From: a virus | Lineage: Duplodnaviria > Heunggongvirae > Uroviricota > Caudoviricetes | DNA: 12,529 nucleotides | IMG/VR virus record: IMGVR_UViG_2671180699_000002 | Reading direction: 5' to 3' (one strand) | Shown here: one piece after another, positions 136 to 12,529 of the stretch | Numbering within the stretch: position 1 is the stretch's first letter | Layout: every line of letters starts with the position of its first letter | Program-made: the position numbers and the translations under genes | Notes under the pieces: model-generated | The model's database searches: none | The model's input: only the letters and a program-made list of their open reading frames with translations | Told to the model about the DNA's origin: nothing

Positions 136-1185
136 TTAGGCCAGCACACCAATTGCCAGCGCGTGATCGATAAATCGAAAAATCAGCTCCAGTTGGGAGC
201 CATACTTCTCTTCAAATGCCACGGTATCCGTATGCAGTTCGTCGTGATGCTTTCTGCATAAAGGCAACACAAAAAGATCATGTGCTTTGGTTCCCATTCC
301 GCCCTGCCCGTGACCAATCAGATGATGCGGATCGTCGGCTGGCATACCGCAGCAAGCACACGGCTGTGTCTTCACCCAGCGAGTGTATTTCTCCTTAACC
401 CAGCGGCGACGTTTAGGTAGCTTCATGAAAGATTCCGGAGACTCAGGATCAACGGTGATGCTTACCACCGTCCTTTCCTGTAGTGGGTGTTGTTCCTGGT
501 GGGCGTGAGGCAACAGTGCAAGATTTTTTGTGCGCTGTTTCAATATGCTGGTGGCGGTCTGCTCTCCCGGTACGATGTCGCTTTCGCGGTACATTGAGCG
601 GATTTTTTCCGCTGGTAATCCCAGCGAGCGACGTAATACCGCTTCAGGTAGCGCATCCGCCACCTGATTTCGGACCGCCCACCAGGATAATTCAGCCAGA
701 GATAATTCACGCTCCTGCGTACCGCTTATTGCGTGACCGATGACGTCAATCATCCATGCTGACAGGTTTTGATGAGCAAGTTGCTCGAGTGATTCGGATG
801 TCTGGTCACGCAGCTGGTTGTCGCAGTGCCAGCACAACACCATTGCGCCGGTACCATAACGGTGAATGACGGTTTCACTGTGGTGATAATCGCCGTGTGG
901 CCACTGGCAGGATTTAATATGGCGCAACAGCCAGTCAGACAATGCACCAGCACCACCAGCAGCACGAATCACCCGTGCGTTACTGAAAAACGGCAGCAAT
1001 GTTTTGTCTTCCACCAGCGGCTGGCGAACGGCAGGAACGACCCCGGACGGCAGATTACGCATGCTTTTCGGTTCCGGCTCCACCAGTACCCGGGTATTGT
1101 GGAATACCGGCATGGATTCACGGCCCGGCTTAACGATCACCACCCCGAGTTCCGGTACCAGAACAGGTCGAAGTAATACCCGCAC
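136..1185 (-). CDS. ydfU: YdfU-like prophage protein, 349 aa, with Cys/His-rich C-terminal region (DUF968-type, possible HNH-like nuclease)
   Basis: Long minus-strand ORF with GTG start at 1185..1183 preceded by GGAGG (SD) 4 nt upstream; stop TAA at 138..136. C-terminal CACCG...HH...CRKHH cluster suggests metal binding. The 349-aa length and position beside rem/hok match my recollection of K-12 Qin ydfU (not verified by alignment). Confidence 0.8.
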   Translation of the reverse strand: MRVLLRPVLVPELGVVIVKPGRESMPVFHNTRVLVEPEPKSMRNLPSGVVPAVRQPLVEDKTLLPFFSNARVIRAAGGAGALSDWLLRHIKSCQWPHGDYHHSETVIHRYGTGAMVLCWHCDNQLRDQTSESLEQLAHQNLSAWMIDVIGHAISGTQERELSLAELSWWAVRNQVADALPEAVLRRSLGLPAEKIRSMYRESDIVPGEQTATSILKQRTKNLALLPHAHQEQHPLQERTVVSITVDPESPESFMKLPKRRRWVKEKYTRWVKTQPCACCGMPADDPHHLIGHGQGGMGTKAHDLFVLPLCRKHHDELHTDTVAFEEKYGSQLELIFRFIDHALAIGVLA

Positions 1186-1632: not shown

Positions 1633-1788
1633 TTACTCCTCAGGTTCGTAAGCTGTGAAGACAGCGACCTCCGTCTGGCCGGTTCGGATTCGTACCTCGC
1701 AGAGGTCTTTCCTCGTTACCAGTGCCGTCACTATGACGGTTAAACAGATGACGATCAGGGCGATTAACATCGCCTTTTGCTGCTTCAT
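1633..1788 (-). CDS. hokD: Hok-family type I toxin (small membrane-depolarising peptide), 51 aa
   Basis: Hand translation of the minus strand gives MKQQKAMLIALIVICLTVIVTALVTRKDLCEVRIRTGQTEVAVFTAYEPEE, which matches my recollection of E. coli HokD/RelF. ATG at 1788..1786, TAA at 1635..1633, SD AAGGAG about 10 nt upstream. The ORF is under 60 aa and so absent from the supplied track. Confidence 0.93.
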   Translation of the reverse strand: MKQQKAMLIALIVICLTVIVTALVTRKDLCEVRIRTGQTEVAVFTAYEPEE

Positions 1789-2046
1789 AGCCTGCTTCTC
1801 CTTGACCTTTCGGTCCGTAAGAGGCTAATCTCTATGTGTCGCATAGATATGGCCTCAGATTAATGTTAAGCGTCTTGCAGGACGCGTAATGTTAACTGGG
1901 GCTTTTCTCTATCTGCCTTTTGGTGTTCATGCCTGAGACAGATAGCCTCAAGCACCCGCAGTCATTCTACTTAACTAAGATTTCCCCGCAAACCGTTTTT
2001 GTCCGGCACAGTAAATATCCAACTAAACCAATGGCGTTCGCTGTAT
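1789..2046 (-). promoter_or_regulatory. hok mRNA leader region (about 260 nt) with a coupled upstream ORF and a long hairpin
   Basis: Non-coding stretch between the stop of the 59-aa membrane gene and the hok ATG. Contains a 19-codon uORF (1844..1785) whose TGA overlaps the hok ATG (ATGA), and an imperfect hairpin at 1821-1856 that covers the uORF start codon. Confidence 0.5.
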
Positions 2047-5917: not shown

Positions 5918-6556
5918 ATGAGCAAGCAAACTATATCTGAACGCATAACCCAACGTATGCATGCGCTAAACCTGAAAGGCAAAGACCTTGTCAATGGCAC
6001 TGGCGCATCAAAAGGCTCCGTAAGTCAATGGATGAACGGTGGAGGAGCGCCGTCCTCGCGTTACATAAGTTCACTGGCAAAAATATTGAAAGTAAACGAA
6101 AATTGGCTTCTTAATGGAGGAGAGTTAAATACAGGTGATTCGCTTGATCTATCTTTACCGCCGATAAAAACGGTTCCGCTACTATCACTTCAGCAGGCAG
6201 CAAGCTGGAGTGATTATATGAAAAATTCCTCAATAACCTCTTGTGTGCAGCTTGTCGGAGAAATCCCGGTCAATACCTTTGCAGTTGTTCTAGAGAGTGA
6301 CAGTATGTCAACATCTGGTGGGGGAGTTTCCATCCCAAATGGTTCAACAGTTTTTGTTGATCCCGATCGAACCGTACAACCAGGAAATATTGTCCTTGCC
6401 TTACCCAAAGGGACCACAACACCTGTCATTCGTAAACTGGAGATAGAAGGGCCGGATATTCTTTTAGTCCCCACGAATCCTCGCTACCCTTCAATTATGC
6501 TGGATGATCTATCTTGCATATTGGGCGTATGCTTTAAAATTCAACAAGATATTTAA
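5918..6556 (+). CDS. CI-like prophage repressor: N-terminal HTH plus C-terminal S24 (LexA-like) autopeptidase domain, 212 aa
   Basis: N-terminal HTH region (KGKDLVNGTGASKGSVSQWMNG); C-terminal ESDSMS serine motif and downstream RKLE lysine, typical of LexA/CI/UmuD self-cleaving proteins. Divergent from the cro-like gene. Confidence 0.9.
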   Translation: MSKQTISERITQRMHALNLKGKDLVNGTGASKGSVSQWMNGGGAPSSRYISSLAKILKVNENWLLNGGELNTGDSLDLSLPPIKTVPLLSLQQAASWSDYMKNSSITSCVQLVGEIPVNTFAVVLESDSMSTSGGGVSIPNGSTVFVDPDRTVQPGNIVLALPKGTTTPVIRKLEIEGPDILLVPTNPRYPSIMLDDLSCILGVCFKIQQDI

Positions 6557-6620: not shown

Positions 6621-6669
6621 AATGTTTTGATAAAAAAACATTGACCTGGAAAGTTCGTCTTTCTAAACT
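6621..6669 (+). promoter_or_regulatory. Candidate pL/PdicB-like promoter with overlapping palindromic operator
   Basis: Inverted repeat AATGTTTT-gataaa-AAAACATT (6621-6642) overlaps a TTGACC -35 (6641-6646); 17-bp spacer; TAAACT -10 (6664-6669). Located between the cI stop and ydfA. Confidence 0.45.
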
Positions 6670-7722: not shown

Positions 7723-7775
7723 TTTCTGGTGACGTTTGGCGGTATCAGTTTTACTCCGTGACTGCTCTGCCGCCC
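7723..7775 (+). ncRNA. dicF: DicF small regulatory RNA (cell-division inhibitor; base-pairs with ftsZ mRNA)
   Basis: The sequence TTTCTGGTGACGTTTGGCGGTATCAGTTTTACTCCGTGACTGCTCTGCCGCCC matches my recollection of the 53-nt DicF RNA. It ends in a GGCGG...CCGCC hairpin followed by TTTTT, and sits between ydfC and dicB as in Qin. Confidence 0.88.
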
Positions 7776-7949: not shown

Positions 7950-8138
7950 ATGAAAACGTTATTACCAAACGTTAATACGTCTGAAGGTTGTTTTGAAATT
8001 GGTGTCACTATCAGTAACCCAGTATTTACTGAAGATGCCATTAACAAGAGAAAACAAGAACGGGAGCTATTAAATAAAATATGCATTGTTTCAATGCTGG
8101 CTCGTTTACGTCTGATGCCAAAAGGATGTGCACAATGA
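7950..8138 (+). CDS. dicB: DicB cell-division inhibitor (acts through MinC), 62 aa
   Basis: MKTLLPNVNTSEGCFEIGVTISNPVFTEDAINKRKQERELLNKICIVSMLARLRLMPKGCAQ matches my recollection of DicB. GAGGA SD 7 nt upstream. The track ORF 7845-8138 is a spurious N-terminal extension. Confidence 0.92.
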   Translation: MKTLLPNVNTSEGCFEIGVTISNPVFTEDAINKRKQERELLNKICIVSMLARLRLMPKGCAQ

Positions 8139-8326
8139 ATTCAGCATTTGTGCTTGTTCTGACAGTTTTTCTTGTTTCCGGAGAGCCAGTTGATATTGCA
8201 GTCAGTGTTCACAGGACAATGCAGGAGTGTATGACTGCAGCAACCGAACAGAAAATTCCCGGTAACTGTTACCCGGTCGATAAAGTTATTCACCAGGATA
8301 ATATCGAAATCCCGGCAGGTCTTTAA
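8135..8326 (+). CDS. ydfD: YdfD-like small protein with N-terminal TM helix, 63 aa (lysis-inducing in K-12 as I recall)
   Basis: ATG at 8135 overlaps the dicB TGA (ATGA): MNSAFVLVLTVFLVSGEPVDIAVS... Length and position match Qin ydfD as recalled. Confidence 0.8.
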   Translation: MNSAFVLVLTVFLVSGEPVDIAVSVHRTMQECMTAATEQKIPGNCYPVDKVIHQDNIEIPAGL

Positions 8327-8418
8327 AACAGTTCCGTAATAAATATCCGGTTTCATTCTTATATGCCAGCAATGGCAGGGATTTGTTCATCCTTAAATCT
8401 GTCATGAGGTTAAAACAA

Positions 8419-10890
8419 ATGAGTAAAGTCTTTATTTGCGCCGCTATTCCTGACGAACTGGCAACAAGGGAAGAAGGCGCTGTGGCTGTAGCCACAGCCA
8501 TTGAAGCTGGCGACGAACGCCGTGCTCGAGCAAAATTTCACTGGCAATTCCTGGAACATTATCCGGCTGCTCAGGACTGCGCTTATAAATTTATTGTCTG
8601 CGAGGATAAACCTGGCATACCCCGCCCTGCCCTCGATTCATGGGATGCTGAATATATGCAGGAAAACCGCTGGGATGAGGAGTCTGCTTCTTTTGTCCCG
8701 GTTGAGACTGAATCCGATCCGATGAACGTCACTTTTGACAAGCTGGCCCCTGAAGTACAGAACGCTGTCATGGTTAAGTTCGACACATGTGAAAACATCA
8801 CCGTTGATATGGTTATTAGCGCACAGGAATTGTTGCAGGAAGACATGGCAACATTCGACGGACATATCGTTGAAGCGTTGATGAAAATGCCAGAAGTTAA
8901 CGCCATGTATCCGGAGCTTAAGTTGCACGCCATTGGGTGGGTTAAGCATAAATGTATTCCTGGTGCTAAATGGCCCGAAATTCAGGCAGAGATGCGCATC
9001 TGGAAAAAACGTCGCGAAGGTGAACGCAAGGAAACCGGAAAATACACGTCTGTTGTTGATCTCGCCCGCGCCAGAGCCAATCAACAGTACACTGAAAATT
9101 CAACAGGAAAAATCAGCCCGGTCATTGCTGCCATTCATCGCGAATACAAGCAGACATGGAAAACACTGGATGACGAACTGGCCTACGCTCTCTGGCCTGG
9201 TGATGTGGATGCCGGAAACATTGACGGCAGCATCCATCGCTGGGCAAAAAATGAAGTTATCGACAACGACCGCGAAGACTGGAAGCGTATCTCGGCATCA
9301 ATGCGCAAACAGCCTGATGCCCTTCGCTACGACCGCCAAACTATTTTTGGCCTTGTCCGTGAGCGTCCGATCGACATTCACAAAGATCCCGTAGCACTGA
9401 ACAAATATATCTGCGAATACCTGACGACAAAGGGCGTGTTTGAGAATGAAGAAACAGACCTGGGCACTGTTGATGTTCTCCAGTCATCAGAAACACAAAC
9501 TGATGCAGTGGAAACTGAGGTATCTGATATCCCAAAAAATGAAACCGCGCCGGAAGCTGAACCATCTGTAGAGCGTGAGGGGCCGTTCTATTTCCTCTTC
9601 GCAGATAAGGACGGAGAAAAATACGGTCGCGCAAACAAACTTTCTGGTCTGGATAAGGCACTGGCTGCTGGCGCCACTGAAATCACAAAAGAAGAATATT
9701 TTGCCCGAAAAAATGGCACATACACGGGCTTACCGCAAAATGTAGATACCGCTGAAGATTCAGAACAACCAGAGCCGATAAAAGTTACCGCTGACGAAGT
9801 AAACAAAATTATGCAGGCAGCCAATATCATCCAGCCTGACGCCGATAAGTTGCTTGCTGCATCACGTGGTGAATTTGTTGAAGGGATTAGTGACCCGAAT
9901 GATCCGAAATGGGTTAAGGGGATCCAGACCCGCGATTCTGTGAACCAGAACCAGCATGAATCGGAACGGAACTACCAAAAAGCGGAACAAAACAGCCCAA
10001 ATGCGTTACAAAACGAGCCAGAAACGAAACAGCCTGAATCAGTGGCGCAACAGGAAGTGGAAAAAGTCTGCACCGCCTGCGGTCAGACCGGCGGCGGCAA
10101 CTGCCCTGATTGTGGCGCGGTAATGGGCGACGCAACATACCAGGAAACATTCGATGAAGAGTATCAGATTGAAGTTCAGGAAGATGATCCGGAGGAAATG
10201 GAAGGCGCTGAACATCCACACAAGGAGAACACTGGCGGCAATCAGCATCACGATAGCGATAATGAAACTGGCGAGACGGCAGATCACTCAATTAAGGTGA
10301 ACGGTCATCAAGAAATCACATCCACCAGCAGGACGTGTGACCATCTAATGATCGACCTTGAAACCATGGGAAAAAATCCTGATGCCCCGATCATCTCAAT
10401 AGGTGCAATATTTTTCGATCCGCAAACCGGAGATATGGGACCGGAATTTAGTAAGACTATCGATCTGGAAACTGCTGGCGGAGTCATTGATCGGGACACC
10501 ATTAAATGGTGGCTTAAGCAATCACGCGAAGCGCAATCTGCCATTATGACCGATGAAATCCCGTTAGATGATGCACTGTTACAATTGTGGGAATTTATCG
10601 ACGAAAACTCCGGTGAATTTTTTGTTCAGGTCTGGGGAAATGGAGCCAACTTCGACAACACGATTTTGCGCCGTTCATACGAACGGCAGGGGATCCCCTG
10701 CCCGTGGCGTTACTACAACGATCGCGATGTACGCACAATCGTTGAGCTGGGGAAAGCCATAGACTTCGATGCCAGAACGGCTATTCCATTCGAAGGTGAG
10801 CGCCATAATGCACTTGATGACGCCCGTTACCAGGCAAAATACGTTTCAGTTATCTGGCAAAAACTGATCCCGAGTCAGGCTGATTCTTAA
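8419..10890 (+). CDS. Large multi-domain protein, 823 aa: uncharacterised N-terminal region, acidic linker, CxxC...CxxC zinc-ribbon-like motif, C-terminal DEDDh (DnaQ-like) 3'-5' exonuclease domain
   Basis: ATG at 8419 with GAGG 9 nt upstream (the track ORF begins at an upstream TTG, 8383). C-terminal motifs: Exo I IDLETMG, Exo II GNGANFDNT, Exo III ERHNALDDARYQ. Zinc-ribbon-like CTACGQTGGGNCPDCG. Occupies the exo/recE position next to xis-int. Confidence 0.88.
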   Translation: MSKVFICAAIPDELATREEGAVAVATAIEAGDERRARAKFHWQFLEHYPAAQDCAYKFIVCEDKPGIPRPALDSWDAEYMQENRWDEESASFVPVETESDPMNVTFDKLAPEVQNAVMVKFDTCENITVDMVISAQELLQEDMATFDGHIVEALMKMPEVNAMYPELKLHAIGWVKHKCIPGAKWPEIQAEMRIWKKRREGERKETGKYTSVVDLARARANQQYTENSTGKISPVIAAIHREYKQTWKTLDDELAYALWPGDVDAGNIDGSIHRWAKNEVIDNDREDWKRISASMRKQPDALRYDRQTIFGLVRERPIDIHKDPVALNKYICEYLTTKGVFENEETDLGTVDVLQSSETQTDAVETEVSDIPKNETAPEAEPSVEREGPFYFLFADKDGEKYGRANKLSGLDKALAAGATEITKEEYFARKNGTYTGLPQNVDTAEDSEQPEPIKVTADEVNKIMQAANIIQPDADKLLAASRGEFVEGISDPNDPKWVKGIQTRDSVNQNQHESERNYQKAEQNSPNALQNEPETKQPESVAQQEVEKVCTACGQTGGGNCPDCGAVMGDATYQETFDEEYQIEVQEDDPEEMEGAEHPHKENTGGNQHHDSDNETGETADHSIKVNGHQEITSTSRTCDHLMIDLETMGKNPDAPIISIGAIFFDPQTGDMGPEFSKTIDLETAGGVIDRDTIKWWLKQSREAQSAIMTDEIPLDDALLQLWEFIDENSGEFFVQVWGNGANFDNTILRRSYERQGIPCPWRYYNDRDVRTIVELGKAIDFDARTAIPFEGERHNALDDARYQAKYVSVIWQKLIPSQADS

Positions 10891-10962: not shown

Positions 10963-11214
10963 ATGAGCGAAGTAATCATGATTGTCTCTCCCGGCAAATG
11001 GGTATCCGAAGAGCAGTTAATTGCGCTGAAAGGAATAAAAAAAGGTACGTTAAAAAAGGCCCGGGAAAAATCGTTTATGGAAGGAAGGGAATATAAGCAT
11101 GTCGCTCATGACGGTATGCCATGGGATAACAGTCCATGCTTTTACAACCTGGAAGAAATTGATCGCTGGATTGAGCGCCAGGCATCAGCAAGACCAAGAC
11201 GTCATCTTACTTGA
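10963..11214 (+). CDS. xis: Excisionase (Xis-like), 83 aa
   Basis: Small protein immediately upstream of int, containing a GREY motif (MEGREYKHV) like the DGREY of lambda Xis-type excisionases. SD is weak; an alternative internal start is possible. Confidence 0.75.
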   Translation: MSEVIMIVSPGKWVSEEQLIALKGIKKGTLKKAREKSFMEGREYKHVAHDGMPWDNSPCFYNLEEIDRWIERQASARPRRHLT

Positions 11215-11248
11215 CTAAAAGCCACACTAACTAATGAGAGAAATTGAA

Positions 11249-12529
11249 ATGAAATATCCGACAGGCGTGGAAAACCATGGAGGGAAATTACGTATCTGGT
11301 TTGTTTATAAAGGCGTAAGAGTCAGGGAAAACCTGGGGGTTCCTGACACAGCAAAAAACAGGCGCGTTGCAGGTGAGCTACGCGCCTCTGTTTGTTACGC
11401 AATAAAAACTGGTGTTTTCGACTATGCAAAACAGTTTCCCTCCTCACGCAATCTGGAAAAATTTGGTGAGACCCGACAAGATTTAACCATAAAAGAACTG
11501 GCTGAAAAATTTCTGGCACTGAAAGAAACTGAAGTCGCAAAAACATCACTCAACACATACCGTGCCGTCATCAAAAATATCCTGAGCATAATCGGTGAAA
11601 AAAATCTTGCCTCATCGATTAATAAAGAAAAATTACTGGAGGTTCGTAAAGAGCTACTGACTGGATACCAGATCCCCAAAAGTAACTATATTGTTACACA
11701 ACCAGGGAGATCGGCTGTAACTGTAAATAATTACATGACAAATCTTAACGCCGTGTTCCAGTTTGGTGTTGATAACGGTTACCTGGCAGATAACCCGTTT
11801 AAGGGGATCTCGCCATTAAAGGAATCAAGAACCATTCCGGATCCTCTTTCGCGGGAGGAATTCATCCGTCTTATCGATGCGTGCAGAAATCAGCAAGCCA
11901 AAAATTTATGGTGTGTTTCTGTTTATACTGGCGTTCGCCCTGGTGAGCTGTGTGCACTTGGATGGGAGGACATAGATCTGAAAAATGGAACAATGATGAT
12001 CAGGAGAAATTTAGCAAAAGACCGTTTCACGGTACCAAAAACACAGGCGGGAACCAATCGGGTCATTCATCTTATTAAGCCAGCAATCGACGCTCTCCGG
12101 AGTCAGATGACATTAACGAGACTGAGCAAAGAGCATATCATTGATGTTCACCTCAGAGAGTATGGCAGAACAGAAAAACATAAATGCACCTTTGTTTTTC
12201 AACCTGAAGTGTCAGCGAGAGTAAAAAATTATGGTGACCATTTTACCGTTGACTCAATAAGGCAGATGTGGGACGCAGCGATAAAACGTGCCGGACTCCG
12301 CCATCGAAAATCATATCAGTCGAGACATACTTATGCCTGCTGGTCGCTGACAGCTGGTGCTAACCCGGCATTTATAGCAAACCAGATGGGCCATGCAGAT
12401 GCGCAAATGGTATTTCAGGTATACGGAAAATGGATGTCTGAAAACAATAATGCACAGGTAGCTTTGTTAAATACACAGTTAAGCGAGTTTGCCCCAACCA
12501 TGCCCCATAACGAAGCAATGAAAAATTAA
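11249..12529 (+). CDS. int: Tyrosine site-specific integrase (lambda Int family), 426 aa
   Basis: Catalytic-domain signatures: TGVRPGEL...W (Arg box), H-x-x-R (SRHTYAC), and LGH...VYGKW containing the presumptive catalytic Tyr. N-terminal arm-type region GKLRIWFVYKG. The track ORF starts 5 codons earlier at ATG 11234 with no SD. The stop is at the window end, so the att site lies beyond it. Confidence 0.93.
   Translation: MKYPTGVENHGGKLRIWFVYKGVRVRENLGVPDTAKNRRVAGELRASVCYAIKTGVFDYAKQFPSSRNLEKFGETRQDLTIKELAEKFLALKETEVAKTSLNTYRAVIKNILSIIGEKNLASSINKEKLLEVRKELLTGYQIPKSNYIVTQPGRSAVTVNNYMTNLNAVFQFGVDNGYLADNPFKGISPLKESRTIPDPLSREEFIRLIDACRNQQAKNLWCVSVYTGVRPGELCALGWEDIDLKNGTMMIRRNLAKDRFTVPKTQAGTNRVIHLIKPAIDALRSQMTLTRLSKEHIIDVHLREYGRTEKHKCTFVFQPEVSARVKNYGDHFTVDSIRQMWDAAIKRAGLRHRKSYQSRHTYACWSLTAGANPAFIANQMGHADAQMVFQVYGKWMSENNNAQVALLNTQLSEFAPTMPHNEAMKN

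Follow-up and report, generated by a model that had tools for sequence, protein, structure and literature searches.

Which kind of nuclease occupies the recombination-gene slot of a Qin-type prophage, and what would it do there next to the excisionase and integrase genes? The question is raised by the viral DNA of IMG/VR record IMGVR_UViG_2671180699_000002 (Caudoviricetes; 12,529 nucleotides, hereafter the window, meaning the whole stretch analyzed), in which a complete gene encodes a protein of 823 amino acids (aa) with a computed mass of 92.8 kDa and an isoelectric point of 4.6. The exact protein is WP_057687886.1, named "exonuclease" in RefSeq, and falls in a 90%-identity cluster with 23,183 members. 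Judged by sequence comparison, it is the noncatalytic scaffold of RecE with a predicted DEDDh exonuclease domain in place of the PD-(D/E)XK nuclease. Our preferred reading, to which we give about an even chance, is that this is a modular early protein of Qin-type phages in which the RecE scaffold would carry a DexA-like nuclease that trims the 3′ ends of DNA. The coordinates of all features are given in Table 1.

The original prediction had placed the C-terminal domain among the DEDDh nucleases and not in the PD-(D/E)XK fold, and a profile search bore this out. Pfam family PF16473 matched with E = 1e-66 (224.3 bits against a gathering score of 27; profile positions 2-177 of 177 covered). The catalytic residues D646 and E648 (in MIDLET), D746 (in NFD), and H796 and D801 (in HNALDDA) fell in invariant columns of an alignment with T4 DexA, an EcD-like open reading frame (ORF), and a standalone prophage homolog. 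T4 DexA was also the sole sequence match in the PDB (8kel/8ken, E = 5e-6), and the RNA exonuclease Rv2179c gave no match in the same search; a DNA substrate is therefore favored. The domain has the PF16473 DEDDh fold family and all catalytic residues in common with DexA, but the identity is 23%, and DexA is a standalone protein of 227 aa from a virulent phage, with extra loops.

Identity was higher to two standalone proteins, at 60% for the prophage exonuclease WP_001061343.1 (E. coli FDN-24, L005:5991-6563) and 38% for the EcD-like ORF. The former has 190 aa and differs from the window protein in lacking the RecE/YdfE scaffold, but its gene, too, comes last among the early genes, directly ahead of an excisionase-like gene of the PrtN family. 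The DEDDh module thus fills the xis-proximal slot with or without the scaffold. The prophage of WP_001061343.1 is e14/CPS-53-like, with yfdP-yfdQ-yfdR as neighbors. The EcD-like ORF (189 aa) was recovered via the published EcD primers, and its numbering agrees with A78 of PMC12153337. EcD itself (HAK9828821.1) is a standalone E. coli homolog of DexA; it has the PF16473 domain and, as here, is a prophage early-operon gene, but it differs in its length of 189 aa, in the absence of a scaffold, in belonging to a P2-like prophage, and in adjoining a Dam methyltransferase gene. We found the EcD-like gene at L026:5679-6269 (-), and also in L008, L013, L023, L024, and L029, within the early operon of a P2-like prophage, where its neighbors are Cox-like and helix-turn-helix (HTH) repressor-like genes and an adjoining D12-class Dam methyltransferase gene. 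This location makes the "bacterial" EcD itself a phage gene.

The region before the DEDDh domain is homologous to RecE. The NCBIfam model of exodeoxyribonuclease VIII (NF007259) aligned aa 246-625 with model positions 271-602 of 877 (E = 2e-83), the whole-protein score of 281 bits being well under the curated cut-off of 1269, and BLASTP against K-12 RecE aligned aa 262-625 with RecE 278-591. At the DNA level (blastn), nucleotides 1425-1867 of the gene (aa 475-622), which cover the zinc ribbon and an acidic linker, were 78% identical to recE codons 455-588. Neither BLASTP nor blastn returned any similarity past RecE residues 588-591, and PF16473 occupies that part of the protein here. The nuclease domain of RecE comprises residues 564-866 according to a review (PMC11611040), and the recombination-proficient C-terminal fragment begins at aa 588 (PMC3945230). 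The RecE homology therefore ends where the RecE nuclease domain starts, which makes this a clean swap of the catalytic domain. The original prediction had set the protein apart from RecE, which is right for the nuclease domain but not for aa 246-625, ribbon and acidic linker included. Both of these elements had been recognized, although with the wrong spacing in the ribbon, which is C551-x2-C554-x7-C562-x2-C565 and not CxxC-x10-CxxC.

Compared with RecE of the Rac prophage, the protein takes the same leftward early operon slot 5′ of xis-int and shares the noncatalytic region with CxxC-x7-CxxC. It differs in three respects: the PD-(D/E)XK 5′-3′ nuclease at RecE ~600-866 is absent and the DEDDh domain stands instead, the first ~245 aa are YdfE-type here but RecE-type (PF06630) in RecE, and recT follows recE in Rac whereas xis is the next gene here.

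Disordered acidic linkers separate the three units of the N-terminal ~440 residues (N1, N2, and a mini-domain) in an AlphaFold model, which was built with 25 of the 180 relatives that an exhaustive search through 1.8 billion representatives had returned. The mean predicted local distance difference test score (pLDDT) of the model is 84; within N1, the part of K-12 YdfE that survives, means over 10-residue blocks are mostly at least 90, with lower values near aa 91-110 and past aa 200. A homolog search with aa 1-394 returned near-identical E. coli entries only. The N-terminus had been described as free of assignable motifs. This probably no longer holds for its sequence family, since precomputed labels for two newer Pfam families, PF27430 (YdfE_N) and PF27432 (YdfE_C), are found on relatives and on proteins 79-99% identical to the window protein; it does hold for structure, where we found no solved relative of the N-terminal region.

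The same scaffold is joined to several different C-termini. When the C-termini of the long representatives were sorted by local BLAST, 10 representatives had a DEDDh C-terminus (class a), 12 had the RecE nuclease (class b), 17 had a C-terminus of ~270 aa with the invariant motif KKSLTDAxKKALSxLGFSAD (class c), and two, P0126 and P0220, had another one of ~250 aa (class d). Across classes, the N1 before N2 is of either the YdfE type or the RecE type (PF06630). The class c C-terminus had no match in the PDB by sequence or profile; its predicted structure resembles the Rad52/Mgm101 annealase fold, a resemblance that is shown by structure comparison only. Class c proteins such as P0132 are like the window protein in the YdfE_N/YdfE_C N-terminus, N2, the mini-domain, and the operon slot before int, but differ in having an annealase-like C-terminus instead of a nuclease, and downstream of their genes there is always an overlapping Sipho_Gp157 gene, with xis/int after it. 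PHROGs labels these proteins "exonuclease" (PHROG 2489), a label that was probably carried over from the shared N-terminus. The class d C-terminus had no Pfam match, belongs to phrog_26058 ("unknown function"), and may be another effector. A hidden annealase in the window protein was also considered and ruled out, as N1 and N2 are common to the nuclease and annealase classes and no Rad52, RecT, or Erf signal was present. Because the scaffold goes with DNA-end effectors of both polarities and with an annealase, the pattern suggests that it is a shared module for targeting or assembly in phage DNA-end metabolism.

The window is a Qin-type lambdoid prophage, and a near-identical copy adjoins rspB in E. 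coli chromosomes. Its genes run in the order S24-type repressor, DUF1391/ydfA, DicF, dicB, ydfD, exonuclease gene, xis, int. No annealase or Gam Pfam domain (RecT, Bet, Erf, Rad52) was found in any window ORF, and in each of the seven contexts that were examined, xis and/or int comes after the DEDDh-class gene, without RecT. These contexts are the window, the near-identical E. coli chromosomal copy, Tritos, vB_EcoS-640R1, and three DEDDh-class genes of further diverged clusters (P0135, P0250, and P0228); the predicted placement in the recombination-gene slot beside xis-int with no partner annealase is thus seen in the window and six other contexts. A simple consensus scan of the + strand found no promoter-like site between ydfD and the exonuclease gene. 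From this, and from the candidate promoter 3′ of the repressor gene, we infer expression of the gene within a repressor-controlled leftward early operon. The repressor in the near-identical chromosomal copy (L001:6628-7047) and that in K-12 (DicA) are proteins of ~135-140 aa with the HTH only. The immunity region is a mosaic, and the window prophage may be SOS-inducible.

If the protein is an early phage DNA 3′-end nuclease, as we propose, it would be produced from the repressor-controlled leftward early promoter when the prophage is induced or a cell is infected, and its DEDDh domain would take nucleotides off free DNA 3′ ends by two-metal hydrolysis. The N-terminal domains, mini-domain, zinc ribbon, and acidic linkers would form the shared targeting or assembly module, which would bring its attached effector, of whatever kind, to the DNA-end substrate or partner that RecE and the Rad52-like fusions also use. 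The role would be to trim 3′ tails or ends on intermediates of phage replication and recombination, with no dedicated annealase and with the use of host or co-resident prophage functions. T4 DexA, which trims in T4 double-strand-break repair, is a model for this proposed role. Among the three functions offered by the original prediction (a noncanonical recombination nuclease, a host nucleic-acid-targeting effector, or an antidefense nuclease), the evidence favors the first.

Several points weigh against such a role. The DEDDh fold, of the DnaQ-like superfamily, predicts 3′-5′ polarity, opposite to that of the 5′-3′ exonucleases of the RecET and Red systems. An enzyme of this polarity destroys the 3′ tails used by annealases and RecA, so that a pro-recombination role is not obvious. 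Moreover, there is no annealase partner, and whether the substrate is single-stranded DNA, double-stranded DNA, or RNA is not readable from sequence. Finally, the homologous standalone EcD has been reported as an anti-T4 defense nuclease (PMC12153337).

The main rival follows from this last point and goes beyond the options listed originally: the gene would encode a prophage-borne antiphage nuclease of the DexA/EcD ("HREX") kind that degrades the modified-cytosine DNA of T-even phages and spares host DNA. We consider this possible, though unlikely. EcD digests 5-hydroxymethylcytosine (5hmC) DNA, spares unmodified double-stranded DNA, and guards cells against T4 when plasmid-borne (PMC12153337). 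Together with the 38% identity of the C-terminal domain to the EcD-like ORF, the rival can draw on the product of a 99.9%-identical gene copy (WP_001537739.1), which is listed, uncommented, among 3196 DexA homologs in Table S3 of PMC12153337. It can also draw on the classical T-even hosts K-12 and BL21(DE3), both without the DEDDh part at the Qin locus, and on an ORF that thousands of genomes keep intact.

The proposed 5hmC-recognition residues are, however, not conserved in the alignment. DexA activity on 5hmC DNA requires W152 and D169 (PMC12153337), which align with Tyr and Lys here and with Trp and Glu in the EcD-like ORF, the alignment of the D169 loop being uncertain. DexA alternates between dimer and tetramer, and loss of the D90-type tetramerization residue marks the "dimer-only" state of EcD (PMC12153337); EcD has A78 at this position, whereas the window protein keeps an Asp, again in a loop-rich region of uncertain alignment. 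As aligned, the protein departs from the sequence features by which PMC12153337 defines EcD-type enzymes, and the D169 region aligns poorly. In addition, a gene far down the early operon, with no promoter-like site just upstream on its strand, should be silent in a lysogen; the gene is found in sequenced phage genomes; the EcD-like gene is itself in a P2-like prophage early operon; PADLOC gave no significant defense-system match (best E = 0.025 over 23 residues); and the 640-aa RecE-type scaffold is left unexplained.

A reading that would account for the scaffold differently, and that we regard as doubtful, takes the RecE/YdfE N-terminus as a general adaptor. The DEDDh version would then destroy the 3′ ends of competitor-phage or defense DNA and would not be a recombination enzyme. 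The swapped effectors would be a 5′-3′ nuclease, a 3′-5′ nuclease, and a Rad52-like annealase, and the targets may include modified T-even DNA or the multicopy single-stranded DNA of retrons. If it were true, the gene would have one of the commonest unrecognized exclusion or counterdefense functions in E. coli, about two thirds of which carry the DEDDh version.

We find it improbable that the protein plays the part of RecE or lambda Exo in a two-component recombinase whose annealase is supplied from elsewhere in the phage, by a co-resident prophage, or by the host. The operon slot and the noncatalytic scaffold are the same as those of RecE, sister proteins join this scaffold to a Rad52-like annealase, and up to 8-10 places per E. 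coli genome match parts of the gene. But the window ORFs hold no annealase domain, the seven contexts have no adjacent RecT, and the predicted polarity is opposite to that of every characterized partner exonuclease. The known exonuclease-annealase pairs are adjacent and partner-specific; work on the pair-specific interactions of RecE/RecT and Red-alpha/Red-beta is cited in PMC3945230.

An RNA 3′-5′ exonuclease like Rv2179c, acting for example in the maturation or turnover of DicF or of early transcripts, is very unlikely. The Pfam family takes its name from an exoribonuclease, some NCBI records call the protein a "3′-5′ exoribonuclease," and DicF is processed from the same transcript, 0.6 kb 5′ of the gene. 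The PDB search, however, led to a DNA exonuclease and not to Rv2179c, and the scaffold is otherwise attached to DNA recombination effectors.

The folded domains are under purifying selection. Against the E. albertii copy, the ratio of nonsynonymous to synonymous substitution rates (dN/dS) was 0.09 in N1, 0.07 in N2, and 0.03 in the mini-domain, with 0.5-0.7 in the linkers; for the DEDDh domain, compared with a more distant copy, it was 0.10. Synonymous divergence (dS) varied ~30-fold across segments of a single pair (window vs. L036:7001-9466), from 0.017 in the DEDDh domain to 0.59 in the mini-domain, which indicates intragenic mosaicism and recent recombination at domain boundaries within the ORF.

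The gene is common and already annotated. Of 5426 complete E. coli genomes, 3537 (65%) carry at least 80% of the gene and 4116 (76%) have the DEDDh segment, the latter in a median of two copies and a maximum of eight. Full-length copies also occur in the sequenced genomes of phages HannyBb, PhiR42_1, Tritos, mEp460, and Evi and of the PPompW phages. The related loci recovered by a single-protein search belong to Escherichia and Shigella only, plus two metagenome-assembled genomes labeled otherwise. As stated in the original prediction, the K-12 copy is cut by an insertion sequence: ydfE (L004:6079-6999) matches aa 1-256 with 100% identity, after which it gives way to IS2E. The BL21(DE3) copy (L049:35892-36389) keeps its first 498 nucleotides, the rest being lost to deletion, and the E. 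albertii and S. flexneri copies have in-frame stop codons in the segment delimited by tblastn. That the gene is a decaying, nonfunctional remnant hitch-hiking in prophages is hardly credible, for against these disrupted copies stand a 2.5-kb ORF annotated as an intact coding sequence in the copies examined and near full length in most complete genomes, the low dN/dS of every folded domain (0.03-0.10), and the intact catalytic residues.

We know of no function assigned for decades to the ~600-residue N-terminal region of RecE. This region alters the recombineering capability of RecET (linear-linear recombination). The natural chimera, taken with its RecE-nuclease and Rad52-like sister fusions, indicates that the N-terminus is a module in its own right, independent and selectable, and able to work with effectors of either polarity, and its function should therefore be testable by domain swaps. 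Although the gene is among the most widespread of E. coli prophage genes, its disruption at the Qin locus in K-12 and BL21 means that standard laboratory genetics never saw it. Trimming of 3′ ends in vivo, if true, could affect prophage recombination, the efficiency of recombineering in wild strains, and susceptibility to T-even phages. Our search of the literature found no description or test of a chimera of RecE scaffold and DexA nuclease, and no account of a single scaffold that is joined to several alternative effectors. Each component is already known, and annotations and a published catalogue include the gene.

The + strand frame of the gene is open from 8383 to 10890. TTG 8383 was rejected as the start codon because the Shine-Dalgarno sequence suits ATG 8419, and this Met is also the annotated start of K-12 ydfE.

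Table 1 Features of the exonuclease gene and of its surroundings in the window
Feature	Position	Strand	Remarks
Coding sequence, 823 aa	8419..10890	+	ATG 8419 to stop at 10890; complete
Shine-Dalgarno GAGG	8406..8409	+	9 nucleotides 5′ of ATG 8419
N1 domain, YdfE-type	8419..9084 (aa 1-222)	+	alpha/beta subdomain aa 1-95, helical subdomain aa 105-205 (AlphaFold)
N2 helical domain	9154..9447 (aa 246-343)	+	shared with RecE (~aa 271-356) and every family class
Acidic linker 1, predicted disordered	9448..9579 (aa 344-387)	+	32% D+E, net charge -12
Mini-domain GPFYF...GRANK...EEYxARKNG	9580..9717 (aa 388-433)	+	two hairpin strands and a helix; in YdfE-type relatives of several classes
RecE-homologous middle segment	9838..10293 (aa 474-625)	+	BLASTP, DNA comparison
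Four-Cys zinc ribbon CTAC-x7-CPDC (C551, C554, C562, C565)	10069..10113	+	kept in RecE too
Acidic linker 2	10129..10341 (aa 571-641)	+	30% D+E, net charge -18
DEDDh 3′-5′ exonuclease domain (predicted)	10342..10857 (aa 642-813)	+	PF16473 (Rv2179c-like)
Repressor, 212 aa, HTH and S24 peptidase	5918-6556	+	LexA/cI-like, self-cleaving type
Candidate leftward early (PL/dicBp-like) promoter TTGACC-17-TAAACT	6641..6669	+	3′ of repressor gene; consensus match only
DicF small RNA	7724-7775	+	Rfam, 76.7 bits; same operon as exonuclease gene
dicB (7950-8138), ydfD (8135-8326)	7950..8326	+	directly 5′ of exonuclease gene
Excisionase (10963-11214), tyrosine integrase (11234-12529)	10963..12529	+	directly 3′ of exonuclease gene; no recT/bet/erf between
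sok antitoxin RNA	1786-1957	-	Rfam, 106.7 bits; overlaps upstream region of hokD
hokD	1633-1788	-	
DUF968 protein	136-1185	-	weak HNHc_6 nuclease-like match, E = 3.5e-5; late-regulatory region

The near-identical chromosomal copy has RusA and antiterminator genes immediately past the counterpart of the DUF968 gene.

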